Of a stretch of DNA of 64,000 nucleotides, positions 3,023 to 33,715 are shown piece after piece. Both the position numbers and the translations under genes were made by a program. The notes under the pieces were generated by a model. It saw only the letters and a program-made list of their open reading frames with translations. It ran no database searches and was not told the origin of the DNA. The stretch is from IMG/VR virus record IMGVR_UViG_3300011785_000001, positions 1 to 64,000 of that record, one strand, 5' to 3'. How positions within the stretch are numbered: position 1 is the stretch's first letter; each line of letters starts with the position of its first letter. The DNA is from an uncultured virus (IMG/VR IMGVR_UViG_3300011785_000001). Lineage: Duplodnaviria; Heunggongvirae; Uroviricota; Caudoviricetes.

Positions 3023-3569
3023 TTACATCCACCTTAATATCTGGGTTATTTCCTAAATCTAAATCCCCTGTAGTTTGAACACGATTAATATGTCCAATAG
3101 GGAAGTCTTCCATTCTTGTTGTTAAAATTGTCAAAGAGATTGTGTCATTGACGAATGCAGTATTACCATTAATGTTCAAGTTAATACGAGGGATTGCTTG
3201 GTAATCCATAAAACCCATACCATACTTATCTAACACTTCTTGACCAAAATCACTGTCTAAAGCAATTGCTAAATAATCGCACCACTCCTCACTTTTACTC
3301 TTGGCTTCACCCTCAAAAGTGATTGTGTAAGTAACAAGGTAATCAACTAAAACTGTCTGCCAACCATTGCCGTTGACATCAACTTTTGTTTTATGTGTTC
3401 TCTGAACAGACTGCTTATTTCTATTTAAAATACTGACAACACAGTAAGGATTCTTTGGAGGGCTACCAGCTCTACCAGCTAAAATGAATGTACAATCAGG
3501 AATAATCTCTTGTAACGCCCTTATAATATTCTTTTCATTGTCAGCGACAATTGGTGTCGTGATTGACAT
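3009..3569 (-). CDS. Putative tail terminator/neck protein
   Basis: Size and position between head-closure gene and sheath; PY-hydrophobic motif near N-term. Confidence 0.55.
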   Translation of the reverse strand: MSITTPIVADNEKNIIRALQEIIPDCTFILAGRAGSPPKNPYCVVSILNRNKQSVQRTHKTKVDVNGNGWQTVLVDYLVTYTITFEGEAKSKSEEWCDYLAIALDSDFGQEVLDKYGMGFMDYQAIPRINLNINGNTAFVNDTISLTILTTRMEDFPIGHINRVQTTGDLDLGNNPDIKVDVNGNG

Positions 3570-3586: not shown

Positions 3587-4054
3587 TTAAGGTTGAGTTG
3601 GATCAGGTGGAACAGGAGTTTCTGGGTTAATACTTATTGTATTAGTCCTACCGAAAACATCACCCATAATACGCTCCTTTTCACTATCTAAAACTTTAAC
3701 AGCTACAGCTTCAACATGATAACCTAAGTTTTGATAAGGCATTGTGTAAGCAACTTTCCAGTAGCAATCGTTGTATAGGATTAAGTCAGCTTCCAATGGA
3801 TGTTCACTACCACTACGAGAGGTGAAAATGTATTGATTACTAGAAATAAAAATTGCTTCTTTCTCAGTAAATCCACGCTCCTTTAGCTTGGTATAATGTC
3901 CTTGAAAAGCTGGTTGAATATTTGCTTTAATATAGACAGTTTTCTTTTGTGGAGGAATCCACTCACCATCTTCGTAAACACCACTACCAACTGATTCATC
4001 ATCACGAATAACAGGATAGGTTTTCTTTCCTAGTTTTGCTCGTAGAATTTTCAC
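3587..4054 (-). CDS. Putative head-closure/head-tail joining protein
   Basis: GVYEDGEW..IKANIQP..ADLILYND..WKV pattern typical of head-closure proteins; synteny. Confidence 0.65.
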   Translation of the reverse strand: MKILRAKLGKKTYPVIRDDESVGSGVYEDGEWIPPQKKTVYIKANIQPAFQGHYTKLKERGFTEKEAIFISSNQYIFTSRSGSEHPLEADLILYNDCYWKVAYTMPYQNLGYHVEAVAVKVLDSEKERIMGDVFGRTNTISINPETPVPPDPTQP

Positions 4055-4056
4055 AA

Positions 4057-4617
4057 CTAACCACCCTTATTCTTTGCAATAGATTTAGCTTGTTCTTCTT
4101 GTTTGGTTAAAGATGACTTATAAACTTCATAATCAAAAGATTGAAGCATATGTCCCGTATCATCCCACTGGAAAGCATGACCTTTAAGATCAATTGTTAA
4201 TTCAGAAAGTTTCTTCATATTTTGCTTCATAACACTGTTATGGAAATCTTGTTTAGCGTTATAACCAATCTGATTTAATTCATCTGTGAAGTCTTGTCCA
4301 TGCAGAGCTTTTAAGAACAACATTTGAACCCGTTTGTGAGCTGTCTTTTTAGTTTCTTCTATAGCTTGTCTGAAGTAAGGTCGTGCTGGAATCTTCTGAT
4401 CACCACTTGTACCAAACTCTTGCATATAAGCTAATTGAGCAACATAGAAACCACTTTCATGTTTTTGCTTCTTCAGCCAACCCCACTTAACATGTCTATT
4501 ATTTAATATGTTAAGGTTTTTCTTTAACTCTTTAAGGTCTGTAAAGTCGTACTCAAGGGAGAATTGTATTCCATCACCTTTTGTGTACGTCTTATTATCT
4601 TTCCACTTTACAGCCAT
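4057..4617 (-). CDS. Neck/tail completion protein (HK97 gp10-like)
   Basis: AYMQEFGT..IPARPYFR and DTGHMLQS motifs. Confidence 0.75.
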   Translation of the reverse strand: MAVKWKDNKTYTKGDGIQFSLEYDFTDLKELKKNLNILNNRHVKWGWLKKQKHESGFYVAQLAYMQEFGTSGDQKIPARPYFRQAIEETKKTAHKRVQMLFLKALHGQDFTDELNQIGYNAKQDFHNSVMKQNMKKLSELTIDLKGHAFQWDDTGHMLQSFDYEVYKSSLTKQEEQAKSIAKNKGG

Positions 4618-4680
4618 AATAACCCTCTATGGAGTTGTAAGAACCTTGTAGCACAAGAAACCTTGTAACATACAAGAAAC

Positions 4681-6979: not shown

Positions 6980-8389
6980 TTATTGGTTTTTAGCTTTCAT
7001 GCGTTCAGCAAGAATGTCATTGAATGATGGAGCTTCCGCTTTCTTAGTATTTGAATTACCAAGCTCTTCCATCTCTTTATCTTCTTTTTCAACTTTAGCT
7101 TCTAGTGCTGAAACAATCGCATCAAATGCTGTAGCTTCAAGACCTGCTGTAGTAGTTAATAGAGTAGCAACTTGATCATTTTCAGAACCAAGAACAGATT
7201 CCAACTTAGCTTTACGTTCTGCTTGCAGAGCATCAGCTTTAATAGTTGCTAACTCTGTTTCTAGTGCTTCTTTAGCGCCTTGAAGTTCTGTCAATTGCTT
7301 TTCTAGTTCAGAATACTTACCTTCAAGCTCTTCTTTCTGAGTGGTCAGTTCAGTAACTAAACCTTCTTTCTCAGTAACAATTTGTTGAGCATTAGTAAGT
7401 TGCTCTGTTAGCTGTGCAGTAACATCGTCATTGCCACCAGCGTTCTTTTTAACGTCTGTCATATTTTCCTCATATGAGATTGTGTTTTCTTTTGATTGAT
7501 TTATCATGCCCTTCATGTAAAGATCGAAATCTTCAATTTCCATGATCTTATCAATAAGACCAATTTCTAAAGCTTCATCTGCATCAAATACTTGAGCATT
7601 AGTTTCAACTACCGATTCAACCGTCATATTACGATTTGTGGCAATGAATTTTGTGAACTGTGTATAACTTTTATCTACACTCTTTTGCAAACCAGAAATA
7701 AAGTCCTCTGTGAAAGAACCATCCTTAGCAAAAGGAATTTTATTTTTACCAGCATAAACAAATGAACGTTCAATACCGATATTGTCTAACATCTTAGAAT
7801 CATTGTAGAGTTGAATAACAACACCAACACTACCAACACGACTTGCAGGGTTAGCAATGATTTCATGAGCGATAGAAGATAGTCCGTAACTTGCAGAAGC
7901 GGAAAGCCCATCAATGTAAGAAATGATTTTTACACCATTATCATCTGCCATTTTACGAATAGCTTTTGAAGTACCGAACAAACGATAAGCTTCTCCACCT
8001 CCGCTATCTTGCATAAACACTACAGTCTTAACACCTTCTGCAACTTGAGCTTCAAATGTAGACTTAATCTTCTCATAAGATGTTAACTCAACACATGCTT
8101 GTGTTTGTCCAGCTCTGTTAACAAGTGTTCCTTTAATATCAATAGTACCAACCATTGTTTCAGGATTTACACCAAGTTGTTTTAACTTATATTGACGGTA
8201 CGCTTCTTCATCTCCGAAGTCGCTACGCATCAATTGAGTTTCTTCAACATCCGTTTCAAACTGTGCTAACTTCATTGTTCGTTCAGGGTCAGCGAAATAT
8301 TCAGCAATTGGTGCTAAACTCTCCTGAGTAATAAACAATGGCGTATTAAACACCTTCTTTGAAAGATGAGCTAATGAGCGTTTAGCCAT
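6980..8389 (-). CDS. Prohead protease (S49/SppA-like) with C-terminal coiled-coil scaffold
   Basis: DSGGGE, SASASYGL, VGSVGV, AGKNK motifs; acidic coiled-coil C-terminus. Confidence 0.9.
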   Translation of the reverse strand: MAKRSLAHLSKKVFNTPLFITQESLAPIAEYFADPERTMKLAQFETDVEETQLMRSDFGDEEAYRQYKLKQLGVNPETMVGTIDIKGTLVNRAGQTQACVELTSYEKIKSTFEAQVAEGVKTVVFMQDSGGGEAYRLFGTSKAIRKMADDNGVKIISYIDGLSASASYGLSSIAHEIIANPASRVGSVGVVIQLYNDSKMLDNIGIERSFVYAGKNKIPFAKDGSFTEDFISGLQKSVDKSYTQFTKFIATNRNMTVESVVETNAQVFDADEALEIGLIDKIMEIEDFDLYMKGMINQSKENTISYEENMTDVKKNAGGNDDVTAQLTEQLTNAQQIVTEKEGLVTELTTQKEELEGKYSELEKQLTELQGAKEALETELATIKADALQAERKAKLESVLGSENDQVATLLTTTAGLEATAFDAIVSALEAKVEKEDKEMEELGNSNTKKAEAPSFNDILAERMKAKNQ

Positions 8390-26930: not shown

Positions 26931-27670
26931 TGGAAAATGAAGAACAAAAGTACCCAAATATCATGACATCGCCTCTTGGTGGAACTCATTACATTGTAAA
27001 TATTTCACAAGTGTTTGGAGATGCTTACACATTTGATGAAGTGATATATGTTTTAGGTATTACAACACCAGATGATATTGTAACATTTAAAATTAATTCA
27101 GATGGTGGTAATCTATTCACCTTGATTGCATTGAAGAATGCTATTGGTATGTCACAAGCACGTATTCGTATGGAATTGCTAGGTATGGCTGCATCTGCTG
27201 GTAGTGCATTATTTCTTACAGAAGCTCATGAGTATGTTGTTGGTGAAGATAGTTGTATGATGATTCACAATATGATTTGTGGAGTCGGCTATGATGATAC
27301 CCATAAAATTGTAACTCGTGCAGAGCACAACAAGAAGATTAATGATCGTTTTGTTAGAAACACGTATTTGAATTTTTTAACTTCTGAGGAAGTGGATTCT
27401 GTCATCATGGGGAAAGAAATCTACTTAGAGGATTTTGAAATCAAAGAACGACTACAAAAACGTGAAGAAATGAAAGCACAACAGATGCAACAAGATTTTG
27501 AAAACAGTGTTAATTCTGAACCAGACCTCTCACAATTCTCTGTAGAAGAACTTGAAGAAGAGATTCAGTTGTGTAAGGAAGATATTAAAGCTTATCAAAA
27601 GGAAGTTAAATCTCGTACCTCGATTCATTCACGTAAGTCTAAAGGAGATGCTGTTGGTGTGGGAAATTGA
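26930..27670 (+). CDS. ClpP-like protease subunit
   Basis: INSDGG, GMAASAGS catalytic Ser, MMIH. Confidence 0.85.
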   Translation: MENEEQKYPNIMTSPLGGTHYIVNISQVFGDAYTFDEVIYVLGITTPDDIVTFKINSDGGNLFTLIALKNAIGMSQARIRMELLGMAASAGSALFLTEAHEYVVGEDSCMMIHNMICGVGYDDTHKIVTRAEHNKKINDRFVRNTYLNFLTSEEVDSVIMGKEIYLEDFEIKERLQKREEMKAQQMQQDFENSVNSEPDLSQFSVEELEEEIQLCKEDIKAYQKEVKSRTSIHSRKSKGDAVGVGN

Positions 27671-27986
27671 TAGATTATTACTTGCTGAAATTATTAGACT
27701 GAAGAACATGAACAAATCTTTAGGTCAGAAGGTTAAATATTATGATGAGATGCTATCGTTAAAAGTTAGATTAACTATGGAGCAACAGAAATATTTATCA
27801 TCAACTGGTGGAGTAACTAACAAGGAGATGTTTAACAGTTGTTCTAAAGATTTATTGGATCACCTAGAATACTTAAGAGATTATGAAAGTCGTTCAAATG
27901 TTCTGAATCTGCCTAAAATTATTAAATTGAATGGTAGAAAGATAATGACGTTGCGAAATACGATTCAGGTTATTAAGGAGAAATAA
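27648..27986 (+). CDS. Hypothetical protein
   Basis: ATG at 27648 after AAAGGAG. Confidence 0.5.
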   Translation: MLLVWEIDRLLLAEIIRLKNMNKSLGQKVKYYDEMLSLKVRLTMEQQKYLSSTGGVTNKEMFNSCSKDLLDHLEYLRDYESRSNVLNLPKIIKLNGRKIMTLRNTIQVIKEK

Positions 27987-28582
27987 TGTTCACAGCACTA
28001 GCAATTAAAAACTTTGCTGGTAGTGTGTTATCTTTTCTATGGGAATATAAATGGAGCATCCTTGTTGGTGCTCTGTTAACATTCCTATGGATTAGAGGTA
28101 ATAACTACAAACAAGATTACGAAGCTGAAGCTACTGCACACGTAAAAACTGTGCTAGAATACAATCAACAGATTAACAACATTCGTGTAGCTAATGAGCA
28201 AGCTCTACGTGTTGCACAGGAAGAATCAGCAGCTAACTACAAAGAGCTTGTTGAGAAAACCCAATCTATTCAGGAGAAATACAATGAACGTAACAAAGAC
28301 ATTGATGCTACTATTACTAAGCTTAACTCTAGTAACAACAGCTTGCAGCAAACAATCGCAGAATACACCAAACGTAATTCCAATTCCGGTGAAAGTAGCT
28401 TGCGAGATTCCACCAATGCCACAAGTTTATTCATCATCAGTGGACTACTTGGAGAGTGTATTGAAAGAAAACAATACTATGGAACAGAAGCTGACAAGCT
28501 CAACAACAGTGTCAACACCCTAATAGAATGGGGGAACCTTGTTATTGAAAGTAATAAAACTAGGACAAAAGAAGGTAGGTAG
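27986..28582 (+). CDS. Inner-membrane spanin (Rz-like)
   Basis: N-terminal TM segment then coiled coil; contains an embedded lipoprotein ORF. Confidence 0.8.
   Translation: MFTALAIKNFAGSVLSFLWEYKWSILVGALLTFLWIRGNNYKQDYEAEATAHVKTVLEYNQQINNIRVANEQALRVAQEESAANYKELVEKTQSIQEKYNERNKDIDATITKLNSSNNSLQQTIAEYTKRNSNSGESSLRDSTNATSLFIISGLLGECIERKQYYGTEADKLNNSVNTLIEWGNLVIESNKTRTKEGR
28284..28523 (+). CDS. Outer-membrane lipoprotein spanin (Rz1-like), embedded in +1 frame
   Basis: AGGAG RBS, MNVTKTLMLLLLSLTLVTTAC lipobox, Pro-rich segment. Confidence 0.8.
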   Translation: MNVTKTLMLLLLSLTLVTTACSKQSQNTPNVIPIPVKVACEIPPMPQVYSSSVDYLESVLKENNTMEQKLTSSTTVSTP

Positions 28583-29371
28583 TTGATGAAACACATCGTA
28601 AATAAGCACATACTTAATAAAAGAGATGAGGTGTTGGGCAAAGAGTTTGAAACAAATAACTCTGGAAGGTGTTTTGTTATAGATTACGCAGGTACAAATA
28701 ATGTTGCCGTAGCCTTTTACCAACCATTTTGCATTGTAAAATGTAGTATGACAAATTTGACAAAAGGTTGTGTTTCTAACCCAATGAAGCGAAATGTGTG
28801 TGGTAAGGGTTATCTTGGTGTCGGTAAATACAGTCCAAGTTTTAACACAAGGGAGTATAAGCTTTGGAAAAACATGTTGGAAAGAGTTTATTGTTTAAAT
28901 GTAAGGTACACAAGAATGAGTTATGAGGATGTTGAAGTCTGCGAAGAATGGCACAATTTCCAAAACTTCGCTGAGTGGTGTGAAACACAGAAATTCCTTA
29001 ATGCTAAAGATGATAAAGGTAATAAATATCAGCTAGATAAAGATATTTTAGTTAAAGGTAATAAAGTATATTCTCCTGAAACTTGTTGTTTTGTACCTCA
29101 TGAAATTAACAGTTTATTTATATTTGGAAAATCCAAAAGAGGAGAATTTGCTATTGGTGTTGGAAAGGTGAACAGTAAGTACCCAGCTTGTGTAAGTAAA
29201 AACGGAGAGACTGTTTATTTAGGTTTGTTTGAAACACCAAAGAAGGCTTTTGAAAACTATAAAAAGGTAAAAGAAAGTCATATTAAAGAGGTTTCCGAAA
29301 TATGGGAAGACCGTATTGATGGAAGAGTTTACAAAGCACTATTAGCTTGGGAAATAGAAGAAAATGATTAG
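28583..29371 (+). CDS. HNH-type homing endonuclease
   Basis: WKNMLER, VCEEWHNFQNFAEW, LDKDIL..GNKVYSPETCCFVP, C-terminal YLGLF AP2-like segment. Confidence 0.8.
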   Translation: MMKHIVNKHILNKRDEVLGKEFETNNSGRCFVIDYAGTNNVAVAFYQPFCIVKCSMTNLTKGCVSNPMKRNVCGKGYLGVGKYSPSFNTREYKLWKNMLERVYCLNVRYTRMSYEDVEVCEEWHNFQNFAEWCETQKFLNAKDDKGNKYQLDKDILVKGNKVYSPETCCFVPHEINSLFIFGKSKRGEFAIGVGKVNSKYPACVSKNGETVYLGLFETPKKAFENYKKVKESHIKEVSEIWEDRIDGRVYKALLAWEIEEND

Positions 29372-29372
29372 T

Positions 29373-29456
29373 GAAGCTGTCAAATTAAACAACAGTATAC
29401 TGACGTTGTAAGAGGGAGTATTCTCTGATGCAAATGAAACAGTAGAATTTAAATAA
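29373..29456 (+). pseudogene. Orphan duplicate of the i-spanin 3' end
   Basis: Translates EAVKLNNSILTL*EG.. versus spanin EADKLNNSVNTLIEWG. Confidence 0.7.
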
Positions 29457-29463
29457 TATTCAT

Positions 29464-29501
29464 AAGGAGTGTTGACACAACGTTAGTACTCCTTTATTAT
29501 G
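29464..29501 (+). promoter_or_regulatory. Promoter overlapping a terminator-like hairpin
   Basis: AAGGAGT..ACTCCTT encloses TTGACA; TTGACA-17-TATTAT. Confidence 0.7.
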
Positions 29502-29542
29502 TCTAATATAAAGTGAAACACAGATTAACTAGGAAGAAACAA

Positions 29543-31820
29543 ATGTCTTTAGCATTAGCACTCAAAACAGCATTAGCGTTAAATGAATATGAAACAGAGC
29601 AGCAACACAAGAAAGAACTTAAAGAGAAAGCATGGAATCCTGAAGTGTTGGTATTGGGAGGGGTTTGTTGGTGGAATCGTAAAGTTGTTAAACAAGTTGT
29701 AGATAAAAAGACAAATGTTGTTAAAGATAAAGAAACAATTCAGAAGATTAAAATCACCGTATTAACACAAGATCAAGACCCTACAGAAGTGAGTAACAAA
29801 GGTAAGTTTTCATTCCGCAATGCTTGTGGGAATAGAATCTACATCTCAGTTAAATCCTACAAGGAAGCTGATGAGTTTGTTGCAGAGTTTTATGGTAAAG
29901 GGACATATCGTGTTTCGAGTGTTCATAATTAATTTAGGAGTGTACCTGTGGTACTAGGAGAAAGAAATGAGTGAAGTTAAAGTGTGGGCGGTATTCTTAG
30001 GTTGGATAAGTTTATTAGCATTAATCCCAACAGTGATGTGGTTTGTTATTTTAAGTGTTGTTGCTTGGGGTTTAAACCAATCAGGGTTGACAGGTGATTG
30101 GTTGCATTACTGGAAGTATTGGTGGTGTTTAGGTGTATTTATTTTAGCGTTTATTGGACAAGTGTTAGTTGCTATTGGAGGTAGTAAATGGAAGAGTTAA
30201 ACAATTTTAAGAAATTCAAGTTTCAAAGTGTTATTCCACAGGATATTCTACAAGCTGTAGGGTTGTTAGATAAACTTGGGTATGGAGCAGAGTGTGATTT
30301 TAGTGCTGATGATGCTGCAAAACATAATGGAGTATGTGCATGGGATGATGGAGAAATTACAGAGGGTTGGTTAGATGACGATAGATTTGAACAAGTAACT
30401 TTAGAGGATTTAAAAAAGATGGTTGGTTATGAGGAAGAAGTCTTGTGGTTAAATAAGAATACCCTTGAAGAAAAGTATTTGAGAGCTAGAGTTTTCCTTA
30501 AAGGTATTGATTGGGTGAAAGTTCCAGAGGGCGCAACATTCGCTACAGGGGATAAAGATAACTTCTTATTTCGAAAGGATGGGTGGTATTATGAACATGG
30601 TGAGTGGGTTGAAACTAATGTTTTATTGAAACATTTTCCAGAGTATAAAAATATAAAACTATTCTGGGTTAATAGTGGTATTTTTACATTAGAACGAGTA
30701 CTAGGGTGTGAGGTGAAGATAAACTACTCTGGTATCGCAGGCTATGTTACAGACATTACTAATAATGGGTATTTCTTGCATATTTGTTGTGGTAGTAATT
30801 TTGATGTGGTAAGTAAACATAACTTAACATTCTTCACAGAAGATGGTAATGAGTTAACATTTGATGAGTATGTAGATATGTATTATGGAGATTGACATGA
30901 ATATTCAAAAAGAAAGAGACATGTTTGAAGAAACTATGCTACGGATGACGGATGGATCTTTTAATACAACAAAAAACCACTTAACCGGTCAGTATACATT
31001 TGGCGTTAATCAAACTTTATGGGCGGTATGGCAAGCAGCCAAAGCCCAATCAGTACCAGAAGGGTTCGTTTTGGTTGAAAAGAGCTTAATTAAAACCTTA
31101 CATGAAGAATTGCTAGACCATGAGCCAGATTCTTTCGTAGTGAATCGTGATATTTGCGAATTGTGGAAGCAAGCCAATGACTGAGATGAATTTAATTGAA
31201 CAATATGGTGGGTATGAAGTTGTAAAGCAAGCTATAGCAAACTACAAGAAATCTGGAGATATGGTTACAGCAGCAGGGTTGGAATTGCAATGTTTGGAGT
31301 ATCGTAGGAAGAACAAGTTTTATGAAGCAGGAGATAAGGTTGTCTCTAGGTATGAAAACCTACACCTATTCGGGGATGTTGTTCTGGAAATTGCATATTT
31401 TCGTGATGACTTAAAAGAAATAGGAGGTTTTGTCAGATTTACCAATGGGAATGATTTTGAATTGGATGCCCTAAGACACGCGACAGATGCAGAAATAAAA
31501 ACAGGGAGACGATTGTGAGAAACGTATTAGTTGTATTTGAACACCAAAAACATGTTGATTCTAGTGCCTACAAGTTTATAGAATCTCTTGATAATGTTGT
31601 TAGTGTTAATAAATACAGTCAAACAATCCTCACAGATGATACACAGTATAAACTTATTGGAGCAGGGTTTCCTTATGTTAGTAGTTTAGGGGATAGACTA
31701 AATGGAATGAAATTTGATGATGTTATGATTCATGGAGATGTTGTCTTAACGAAAAACGTTGAGTTGTATATTAAGACTAGGATGAAAGAATCAAAAGATT
31801 TTATTGAGTTTGAGTATTAA
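29543..31820 (+). CDS. Run of hypothetical ORFs (29543-29932, membrane 29967-30200, 30188-30895, 30897-31184, 31177-31518, 31515-31820)
   Basis: Overlapping stop/start codons, RBS; WQAAKAQSVPEGFVLV and LRHATDAEI motifs recall Acinetobacter prophage ORFs. Confidence 0.7.
29935..29961 (+). promoter_or_regulatory. GTACC/GGTAC hairpin next to RBS (copy 1)
   Basis: TAGGAGTGTACC-TGT-GGTACTAGGAGA, ATG at 29967. Confidence 0.7.
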
Positions 31821-31948
31821 CAATGTTGTTAAGACTCCTTTCATGAATCTGTAAAATTAGTTTCAGAAAAATTTTAGCATCATGTTTTAGGAATGTGGTG
31901 CTATTTCCTGATTTGGAAAATATCTTATATAGTAACTAAGGAGTTAAT

Positions 31949-32920
31949 GTGGTTAAGAAGTTAGAGAGTATTAAAGTTAAAGCAGCGAACGGTAAAGGTG
32001 AAGTTTGGGTGTACGATGGTGATGTTGATTATCAAGTTGGATACAGCAGAAATCCTTCTTACTATTATAACGATGAGGGAGTTAGACGTAAGACAAGACC
32101 AAGAGTTCAACATGATGGTTTACTACAAAGAACTAAAGCTGTAAAGGGTGCTTATGCTGGTTCTACCTTATCTGCCAGTTTTAAAAACTTCGATAGGTGG
32201 GTAAGTTGGGCACAATCTCAGTTAGGGTTCATGTGTGAAGATAATGACGGTATATTATTTCACTTAGATAAGGATTTGCTTGGAAACGGAGATAAACACT
32301 ATAGTGAAGACACTTGTTGTTTCCTTCCTAATGTGGTTAATGGTTTGGTCAAAGTGTTGAATAACCCACATATTGAAAACGTTTATTGCATAAACACTGT
32401 TACCAAAACTTATATGGTTTCTGTGAATGGTAAGGATTTTACTTTTAATAGTTTAGACGAAGCCGTTGAACACAGTAAACGATCATTCTTGAATCGTTGT
32501 GAAGAAGTTTTAAAAGAAAAGATGGTTACACATTTAAGTAAAACTTACTGCGAGGATTTTGATAAAGCACGAGCAGAGTATGACTCAGCTAGAGTTAAGA
32601 ATGTGAGAAACAAGCTGGTAAATTTTGTTGCTGATGGGAAAACAAAAGGTCTGCCTAGAGGGATTGCGAGAAGTGGTAGTAAATATAGAATACAAATTTT
32701 GTTTGAAGGGAAGCGTGTTGCAGCTCGAACAGGTTCTTTTGATAAATTGAAAGATGCTGAAATTGAAGCTAATAGTATTTACCTAAACATTTGTAACAAT
32801 CTGGTTGATAAATACAAAGGTGATTCACTGGTTTCTAAAACTGTAGAATTTAAAAAATTAGTTAAGATGCAGGATAGTTTAACAAAAAATAGGGAGCTTC
32901 TAATGAGTATGTATTTTTAG
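31949..32920 (+). CDS. HNH-type homing endonuclease, flanked by ~70-bp imperfect direct repeats
   Basis: FKNFDRWVSW, FHLDKDLL..HYSEDTCCFLP, GLPRGI; repeats at 31857-31927 and 32917-32988. Confidence 0.75.
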   Translation: MVKKLESIKVKAANGKGEVWVYDGDVDYQVGYSRNPSYYYNDEGVRRKTRPRVQHDGLLQRTKAVKGAYAGSTLSASFKNFDRWVSWAQSQLGFMCEDNDGILFHLDKDLLGNGDKHYSEDTCCFLPNVVNGLVKVLNNPHIENVYCINTVTKTYMVSVNGKDFTFNSLDEAVEHSKRSFLNRCEEVLKEKMVTHLSKTYCEDFDKARAEYDSARVKNVRNKLVNFVADGKTKGLPRGIARSGSKYRIQILFEGKRVAARTGSFDKLKDAEIEANSIYLNICNNLVDKYKGDSLVSKTVEFKKLVKMQDSLTKNRELLMSMYF

Positions 32921-33715
32921 TTTTAGAAAAAATTTTCATACTTCACTTTTAGAGAACAAGGATGTTTTCTAATTCGTAAAATATCTTAAAGGGTTTGGGT
33001 ACATTAATGTTTTCGATATTGGTTTTATGAATACTGTCATCTATCTATTTCTTGTTTTAACATGGCGCATGGTCGTCAATAGTAATCAAAAGGGAGAATG
33101 GAAGTATCTATGCCCGCATATCTTCATATAAGCCCCGTAGCGGCATTTTAAGAGCCTGATATATACCTACGTACCGTTATATCCTAAAGTCGCTGTAATG
33201 AGCTTAAAACAGCGTTTAACGTGATGCTATAAAGTTGAATTGACAGATACCCGACAAGGTCGATATTTTGAAGTCACTTAACACAGACTTAAGTTAAAAA
33301 CAATAGATAATAATAAATAATAACAAAAAAAGTTTTAATTAGTTTATTATAAGATTAATTGATAGTGATATTAGTTATAATGATTAGTAAATGATAGGCA
33401 CAAAAAAGGTTTTGTTTAGGCAACAAAAAATATTTAATTATTTTATCGTTAGATTTTCCCTAGCATATTCATATTTAAAAGTAAATAGTTTTAAGCTTTA
33501 AAAAGTGAAATTGTTCTATTTGCTCGATTTCGCTGTGTGCCTTTATGATTGTATGCGCCAGCGCTATCGTTCAAAATACGCGATTATATGAGCATTTAGA
33601 CCCTATTGACTTTATAATTCAATTGTGCATATAGCAAAAAACACGAAAATAGCTACTATATTACAATAATAACTAATAATCGTGTTTATATTCTAAATTT
33701 GTTATATAGGGCGTA

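Follow-up and report, generated by a model that had tools for sequence, protein, structure and literature searches.

A phage spanin locus with a putative HNH-AP2 homing endonuclease gene between a live and a decayed spanin 3' end

Background

The closest described parallels to the locus reported here come from fungal mitochondria and yeast, where endonuclease genes lie behind a target gene together with a replacement version of its 3' end. We describe a comparable arrangement in the first 64 kilobases (kb) of a 95,415-base-pair (bp) record of an uncultured virus of the Caudoviricetes (IMG/VR IMGVR_UViG_3300011785_000001; estimated to be 98% complete); this whole stretch of 64,000 nucleotides (nt) is hereafter called the window. 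In it, a gene for an HNH-like endonuclease with a C-terminal AP2 domain stands directly behind an i-spanin gene, inside which an o-spanin gene is embedded, and is itself followed by a decayed spanin 3' end apparently of another allele type. The same layout recurs in a second genome, and a nearly identical block of spanin 3' half and nuclease gene is found elsewhere in a different context. We read the locus, with a probability of roughly 0.75, as the trace left when a free-standing homing endonuclease gene of the HNH-AP2 kind entered the spanin 3' end along with a donor spanin 3' region.

In the mORF 'gene hybrids' of fungal mitochondria, described in the pertinent parts of Beaudet et al. 2013 (PMC3630166) for atp6 of Allomyces macrogynus and for atp6, atp9, cox2 and nad3 of Glomus, an endonuclease open reading frame (ORF) likewise lies behind an intact gene, with a foreign C-terminus in front of the endonuclease and the native one shifted to its downstream side. 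It is the native copy that looks like endonuclease-free relatives, whereas the inserted copy has diverged as DNA yet is conservative as protein. Those endonucleases are of the LAGLIDADG or GIY-YIG kind and reside in an organelle, whereas the present one is of the HNH-AP2 kind and resides in a phage; furthermore, the end replaced here encodes two overlapping genes, the second of which is changed by the recoding. The WHO elements at yeast FBA1, as presented in the relevant sections of Coughlan et al. 2020 (PMC7282813), are units of an endonuclease gene and, upstream of it, a resistance-conferring 3' end of the target; as in the window, the previous 3' end is shifted to a downstream position, where it decays, and the target gene becomes chimeric in its 3' part as it evolves. 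They differ in being intein-like proteins with zinc fingers, in forming clusters built by repeated homing, and in that their allele-specific cleavage was shown by experiment, whereas the window case is known from sequence alone. The window locus holds one nuclease gene and one fragment only, and its nuclease combines an HNH-like region with AP2. Because of the different kind of nuclease and the lack of clusters, it is an analogue of the mORF and WHO families and not a member of either.

Several phage systems share parts of this anatomy. The T-even endonucleases SegF, SegG and MobE (Edgell et al. 2010, PMC2988022, in the sections on intronless homing) are encoded by free-standing genes beside their presumed target genes, flanking donor sequence is co-converted, and one-sided events end at microhomologies, as established for T4 (Edgell 2010, PMC2988022, citing Parker 1999); those sections do not mention displaced duplicates of target ends, and the T4 enzymes belong to other subfamilies. 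The 'HEG-islands' and IPA-HNH proteins of ICP1-like phages (Barth et al. 2023, PMC10055350) are closer in that they involve atypical HNH enzymes missed by the Pfam HNH_3 model and bearing a C-terminal AP2 domain, and in that the endonuclease genes are accompanied by fragments of essential genes, for which a role as recombination substrates is proposed; in the portions concerned, such fragments appear only in passing, and neither the succession of live tail, nuclease and dead tail nor a spanin case is described. In phage Shivani (Kongari et al. 2018, PMC6139136), a GIY-YIG homing endonuclease gene is inserted at the 3' end of the i-spanin gene, and the change to the i-spanin is confined to the extreme C-terminus. 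There, however, the nuclease is of another family, the spanin genes are overlapped and not embedded, the insert lies between the two spanin genes, and the part of the account dealing with it reports no displaced remnant. The same source indicates that the extreme C-termini of spanins tolerate variation, and the spanin 3' end would hence be a safe landing place.

Word searches of open-access text, which are no proof of absence, found no printed account of a phage spanin locus with a live tail, an HNH gene and a dead tail, and the phage literature that we did find touches on this anatomy only in passing, as fragments beside homing endonuclease genes (Barth 2023, PMC10055350, in part). The window locus is thus a clear new phage example of a layout known from fungal mitochondria and yeast, and not a new principle: it adds a clean phage case of a homing endonuclease gene that carries along a substitute end for its target gene. 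What is new is that the end of an overlapping gene is rewritten when one frame is recoded. As two proteins are encoded, in overlapping frames, by the end that is invaded, the locus makes it possible to test for a link between selfish nucleases and the fast, mosaic evolution seen at the ends of spanins. At a practical level, remnants and odd gene ends of this sort can mislead gene callers and pangenome clustering.

Results and discussion

Anatomy of the locus

The features that make up the locus, all on the + strand, are the following:

27986..28582, +, intact i-spanin gene, 198 amino acids (aa); an ORF matching phrog_312 'Rz-like spanin' (E 3e-10)
28284..28523, +, o-spanin gene, 79 aa, with the signal MNVTKTLMLLLLSLTLVTTAC...; an ORF matching phrog_456 'Rz-like spanin' (E 2.6e-4)
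28487..28582, +, live i-spanin tail of the type 'VNTLI..NLVIESNKT', from the sequence and comparison with homologues
28496..28501, +, AAG CTC, read as K L in the i-spanin frame and as S-S in the o-spanin frame, from comparison of frames with six relatives
28586..29371, +, free-standing endonuclease gene, 261 aa, with an alternative TTG start at 28583; matches phrog_953 'HNH endonuclease' (E 1.1e-63)
29373..29420, +, remnant of a spanin 3' end, decayed and apparently of the 'VLTLQ' type, from DNA and protein profiles and tail comparison
29421..29456, +, stretch of unproven origin, running up to a TAA that the earlier note took for the stop of the remnant

The o-spanin gene lies wholly inside the i-spanin gene, in the +1 frame, and ends 7 codons past the point where its relatives end. 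An embedded pair of this kind is likewise present in six relatives. DNA context is available for seven spanin loci (the window, L001, L002, L003, L004, L009 and L010). The i-spanin has an N-terminal membrane segment and 382 homologues at E<=1e-5, and it matches Pfam DUF2514 only below the family cut-off; the lipobox of the o-spanin (..LVTTAC) was picked out by eye from the sequence, with no score from a tool. From these sequences we classify the two as a putative two-component embedded (Rz/Rz1-like) spanin pair, for which membership of the family predicts a role in disruption of the outer membrane at lysis. The HNH-like ORF follows directly 3' of the i-spanin stop (28582) and ends in its own stop, TAG, at 29369-29371. 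Read by eye, the final codons of the live tail (GAAGGTAGG) resemble a ribosome-binding site for the HNH gene.

In one of the nuclease-free relatives (L004, 4001-4636), the spanin is split in two frames (4001-4336 and 4379-4636), reflecting either a frameshifted gene or an assembly error.

A displaced spanin 3' end behind the nuclease gene

The remnant starts one base past the nuclease stop: from 29373 the frame reads EAVKLNNSILTL, a stop, EGVFSDANETVEFK and a second stop, and the live i-spanin tail from 28487 reads EADKLNNSVNTLIEWGNLVIESNKTRTKEGR up to its stop. Direct comparison of the two pieces, with 20 of 24 nt identical, gives a weak signal. A blastn search of the window places this self-match third among the non-self matches (E 0.063), behind two chance matches, and shuffling yields a z of 3.8, with the best of 200 shuffles scoring higher and, in a separate trial, 5 of 300 shuffles equalling its score. 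These figures would suit an alternative, namely that ordinary intergenic DNA behind the nuclease gene resembles a spanin tail by chance. The same may be said of the distal half of the putative copy, which is at chance level, and of the similar-looking flank repeat at a second HNH gene of the window, which is a recurrent intergenic element (see below).

Profiles made from relatives speak otherwise. The nucleotide profile was built from the spanin tails of the six relatives, with the window left out, and was run with nhmmer against both strands of the 64 kb; it recovers 29372-29414 as its second-best match in the window (E 6.4e-5; the next match has E 0.27), and this match begins at the profile column that aligns with 28487. 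With protein profiles the remnant is the sole extra match, with an independent E-value of 5.9e-4, and of 0.015 when the window and the six other loci were searched together. The resemblance is in the correct register in both reading frames and includes the o-spanin stop (KLSN-stop), and an independent remnant occurs at the same place in L002. The spanin origin of the remnant is convincing because it is established with the profiles of relatives and not with the self-match, and a mere chance resemblance appears extremely improbable.

The remnant shows signs of decay: the Q codon has changed from CAA to TAA, a W codon has been lost, and the frame now reads ILTL-stop-E. Its demonstrable extent is limited. 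Positions 29415-29456 ('EG..ANET'), compared with the live tail ('EWG..SNKT'), give a z of -1.4, with 291 of 300 shuffles scoring as well, and they have no similarity above shuffles to the tails of L009 or L010. Since the distal half is at chance level, only about 48 nt (about 16 codons) of the 84 nt can be called spanin-derived. The earlier note had claimed a tail copy throughout; this holds for 29373-29420, and its pairing of 'ANET' with 'SNKT' is lost among the shuffles. The order that it proposed, with a live tail, an HNH gene and a dead tail, is borne out, and the two tails appear to be of different allele types. An origin of 29415-29456 from the end of a 137-aa ORF of L003 and L004 was also considered and rejected (z about 0).

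Allele types of the tails and loss of the o-spanin stop

Tail types were counted among 119 homologues. The type 'VLTLQ' is the commonest (43/119), followed by 'VTTLQ' (40/119), while the live 'VNTLI' type is found in 10/119. The remnant appears to be of the 'VLTLQ' type, its TAA being one change away from the CAA (Q) of L009 and L010. The residues that discriminate between the two tails are L and Q (now a stop) in the remnant, as against N and I in the live tail; L is present in 45 and Q in 102 of the 119 homologues, N in 13 and I in 10. At the nucleotide level, the remnant and the live tail agree at 29 of 48 positions, a value within the range of 25-38 of 48 seen among tails of different phages. 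The remnant is nearest to the tails of two nuclease-free loci, L010 (35/48 nt) and then L009 (33/48 nt), both of which carry 'VLTLQ', in agreement with the expectation that relatives without the HNH gene should end like the remnant.

The o-spanin frame provides a further character. Its stop is at one position in all six relatives (as KLTN, KLQN, KLRN or TLQD followed by the stop) and in the remnant (KLSN), and this conserved stop is built by AAA or AGA followed by TTA, CTA or TTG. In the live allele, AAG CTC is silent in the i-spanin frame, and it turns the N-stop of the o-spanin (conserved as N/D-stop) into S-S, so that the o-spanin is extended by 7 residues (KLTSSTTVSTP-stop). Because the relatives and the remnant share the o-spanin stop and the live allele has lost it, the dead copy appears to be in the ancestral state and the live copy in the derived one.

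Three statements of the earlier note need amending. The letters AAA TTA versus AAG CTC are as it gave them; the term 'synonymous' does not apply, as the o-spanin stop that 6/6 relatives keep is lost and 7 residues are gained. For the same reason, a doubly coding gene is not kept unchanged by the insertion, as had been supposed. Calling that gene 'essential' is also too strong for spanins, whose extreme C-termini tolerate change (Kongari 2018, PMC6139136, in the part on C-terminal variation).

A second carrier and the nuclease-free loci

The nuclease gene stands directly behind the spanin gene in two of the seven loci, the window and L002, whose nucleases occupy the same position and are 47% identical. 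In L002, the sequence after the nuclease stop reads MIEANKGEKDVK followed by a stop, a remnant that was found by reading past the nuclease stop, the nucleotide repeat test having found no repeat at this locus. Its final 11 residues, 'IEANKGEKDVK', are the exact C-terminus of 5/119 homologues, and 'ANKGEKDVK' occurs in one place only (L002 and L066, which are the same contig) in 844,130 translated residues. This remnant overlaps the start of the next gene (MLSDYDKG..). The live tail of L002 is of a different, longer type that reaches into the 5' end of the nuclease gene, the i-spanin frame entering that gene by 32-50 nt before its stop; this run-on and the overlap of the remnant with the next gene were noted at 4563-4612 and 5363-5401 of L002. 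At the junction, ATTGAG is common to the last codons of the nuclease gene and to the remnant, which is compatible with a junction formed at a microhomology.

A tail remnant is hence found in both carriers, and none of the five nuclease-free loci (L001, L003, L004, L009 and L010) has a second tail-like match. The live 'VNTLI...NLVIESNKT' tail is likewise absent from these five.

A near-identical block in another context

Among the sequencing runs searched, none contained more than 0.29 of the sampled words; contigs of four public runs were compared with the window. In run X1, a contig of 1698 nt (X1-4) matches 28262-29378 at about 99% (14 differences) and then continues with 581 nt unlike the window, the break falling 6 nt into the remnant. 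Nearly the same block of spanin 3' half and nuclease gene therefore exists with a different right flank. As the contig ends at 28262, the left end of the block is undefined, and the moved tract reaches at least that far, upstream of 28487. The earlier note had drawn the mobile unit as the target 3' end plus the HNH gene. The recurrence of the block and its break at 29378 agree with this, and the left edge that it set at 28487 has to be moved to 28262 or beyond.

The block also bears on the possibility that the spanin tail was duplicated in tandem within a single genome and the nuclease gene landed between the copies, with no foreign tail and with divergence in place. The layout is, formally, a direct repeat flanking an insert. 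Nevertheless, the copies differ at 19 of 48 nt, yet a 99%-identical block of live tail and HNH gene exists elsewhere. Moreover, the ancestral o-spanin stop is found in the dead copy, together with the 'LTLQ' residues that are common among homologues, and the rare state in the copy under selection; had the copies diverged in place, the one under constraint would need to have changed further than the one free of it. We consider a local duplication very unlikely.

Recombination has affected the spanin gene more generally. In three independent runs, numerous contigs stop at 28291, close to the start codon of the o-spanin gene (28284), which suggests that this position is a branch point of the assembly graph and a recombination boundary. 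Spanin codons 1-135 are matched at 96-100% identity by relatives, in different proteins, and codons 136-198 at 77-78% at most; the live allele first becomes unusual near codon 136. Variability along the spanin peaks at codons 133-154 and 188-198, and the N-terminal membrane part varies too. In the four runs, the depth over the HNH bins is below that of the flanks in X19 and X3, and joints skip 28113-29624 and 28297-29482, with unknown letters between; this is no clean empty site, and we do not count it as evidence.

The nuclease

The predicted structure of the nuclease is confident, with a predicted local distance difference test score (pLDDT) of 92.9, and the model divides into three domains: 1) an N-terminal small beta-barrel (residues 6-62), 2) a central nuclease-like domain and 3) a C-terminal AP2 DNA-binding domain. 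The last, of about 75 residues, is identified as AP2 by the top Foldseek matches, with a root-mean-square deviation (rmsd) of 1.1 over 46 columns to 1gcc_A, by comparison with 2gcc_A (VIA Z 6.7, 56 aligned, rmsd 2.0) and by a profile search of the PDB (WRI1, E 7.4e-5). A Foldseek search with the whole model recovered the AP2 domain only, single-sequence searches of the PDB and NCBIfam gave nothing meaningful, and the protein matched no Pfam family, the HNH families included.

Family matches were found in 735 phage records. The invariant columns of the family are N124, F125, D151, K152, D153, Y162 and N175, with H123 nearly invariant, and all seven are kept in the window ORF. This ORF is full-length and has three paralogues in the same 95-kb genome (four family members in all). 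A full-length ORF, retention of the invariant columns and the presence of paralogues are typical features of homing endonuclease genes, and the protein fits the atypical HNH plus AP2 class (IPA-HNH-like) of Barth et al.

Proposed mechanism

We envisage intronless homing with co-conversion of the 3' part of the donor spanin. In a mixed infection, the nuclease would cut a spanin allele that lacks the nuclease gene, within or close to the conserved, doubly coding sequence around GAAGCTGACAAATTRAACAAC. The left end of the break would then invade the homologous donor spanin, with a crossover anywhere upstream, at least to 28262, and repair synthesis would copy the donor tail and the nuclease gene. 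The right side would be resolved at or just beyond the break through short homology or microhomology, with no need for long homology. Resolution at the break would leave the recipient's own tail behind the nuclease gene as a non-functional, decaying fragment. The live allele would most likely be immune through its difference at the presumed target, at the cost of an o-spanin longer by 7 residues.

A stricter version of the WHO scheme would make the remnant a right-hand homology arm needed for homing, with each event leaving a new fragment of the recipient's tail. As set out in the passages concerned of Coughlan 2020 (PMC7282813), that model predicts that the identity of carriers breaks at the start of the fragment, and such a break is seen at 29378. 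For gene fragments that adjoin homing endonuclease genes of phages, an arm role of the same kind has been proposed (Barth et al. 2023, PMC10055350, in part), and the fragment is present in both the window and L002. Set against this, the stretch of demonstrable homology is short (in the window about 48 nt, about 70% identical, and in L002 36 nt), and the window fragment already has a stop and a codon deletion; so short and decayed a fragment is a poor substrate for homologous recombination, which argues against an efficient arm. Unlike the WHO loci, the window locus has no clusters of successive nuclease genes and fragments. We regard a strict cassette of this type as possible, if rather unlikely.

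Several points weigh against the homing of a free-standing nuclease gene with its donor tail, as outlined above. 1) Cleavage, the cut site, immunity and the way in which the right junction formed are steps that we infer from the layout. 2) The central domain, folded alone (pLDDT 88.2), has only 8 chains at Z>=2, and its best match, PacI (3m7k_A), is weak (Z 5.2, rmsd 3.7, 88 aligned); as we take PacI to be an HNH-type restriction enzyme, the models weakly suggest an HNH fold. The family also has D-K-D where canonical HNH motifs presumably carry histidine. 3) A close relative with an empty site was found in none of the searches of GenBank phages, IMG/VR and genome_contigs. For GenBank phages, a near-identity DNA search gave no match and a distant one the conserved HNH core only; in IMG/VR, a degenerate pattern of the target site had 0 matches and the profile-based locus search returned only two contigs already known, while in genome_contigs that search returned none. 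Among nuclease-free relatives for which there is DNA, the best reaches 71% identity in the spanin. 4) By raw identity over 14 residues, 0/119 homologues are nearer to the remnant, 106 are nearer to the live tail and 13 are ties, and the argument from allele types accordingly rests on two residues, 48 nt and a stop codon. The 10/119 homologues with the live tail type are, moreover, known as protein sequences only. 5) The spanin is mosaic along its whole length, and so ordinary recombination, and not only homing, shapes the locus.

A broader scenario may be sketched, which we hold to be decidedly doubtful. If the recognition site of the nuclease lay on the doubly coding stretch with the o-spanin stop, immunity would be attainable only via changes that, although silent in the i-spanin, give the o-spanin a different end. 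Homing endonucleases might thus drive the diversification of both overlapping spanin C-termini and give rise to the mosaic, hypervariable 3' third seen across the 119 homologues, with whole modules of the o-spanin plus the i-spanin C-terminus being swapped as units from a recombination boundary near 28291.

Other loci of the nuclease family

Flank repeats were scanned for at 59 loci of the family (55 from IMG/VR, L002 and three window copies), two of which were too short to test. At four of them (L022, L054, L060 and the second HNH gene of the window) the score of the repeat was reached by 0/300 shuffles. L054 and L060 are a mirror image of the spanin locus: here it is the 5' end of the downstream gene that occurs twice, with the old start stranded ahead of the nuclease gene and the live start behind it. 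In L054, the stranded start is at 2418-2452 (ATG AGA AAT ATT GCG GTA ATT TGT..), and the live start, at 3266-3310 (GTG AGA AAT ATT GCA GTT TTG TGT..), overlaps the nuclease stop.

The second HNH gene of the window (31949-32920) is bracketed by an 86-nt repeat (31843-31928 and 32905-32989; z 7.4). Both copies of this repeat are also present in L003, on either side of an unrelated 114-aa ORF (7456-7515 and 7809-7876 being the repeat copies), and the second HNH gene was accordingly rejected as a further case of target duplication. The repeats of about 86 nt look like recurrent regulatory intergenic elements between which gene cassettes are exchanged. In L022, the repeat is a 22-nt intergenic direct repeat (94-115 and 965-986; 21/22 identical) near a long (TA)n tract, and it was not counted as another example.

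Flanks of the spanin locus

Two further features delimit the locus on its right:

29464..29500, +, hairpin with a 13-pair stem enclosing a promoter-like site, TTGACA-17-TATTAT (11/12 promoter match)
29543..29932, +, conserved 129-aa gene at the right flank, phrog_3948, of unknown function

In alignments, the sequence common to the window and to L003 and L004 restarts at about 29443-29451, and the hairpin is kept almost base for base in these two nuclease-free loci, upstream of the 129-aa gene. On the left, all four runs have contigs in which about 27597-27642 is connected to about 27972-27985, in some of them by way of other letters, and in L003 a protease-like gene abuts the spanin start; these arrangements indicate that the 144-aa ORF at 27552-27986, just upstream of the spanin gene, is a variable insert.

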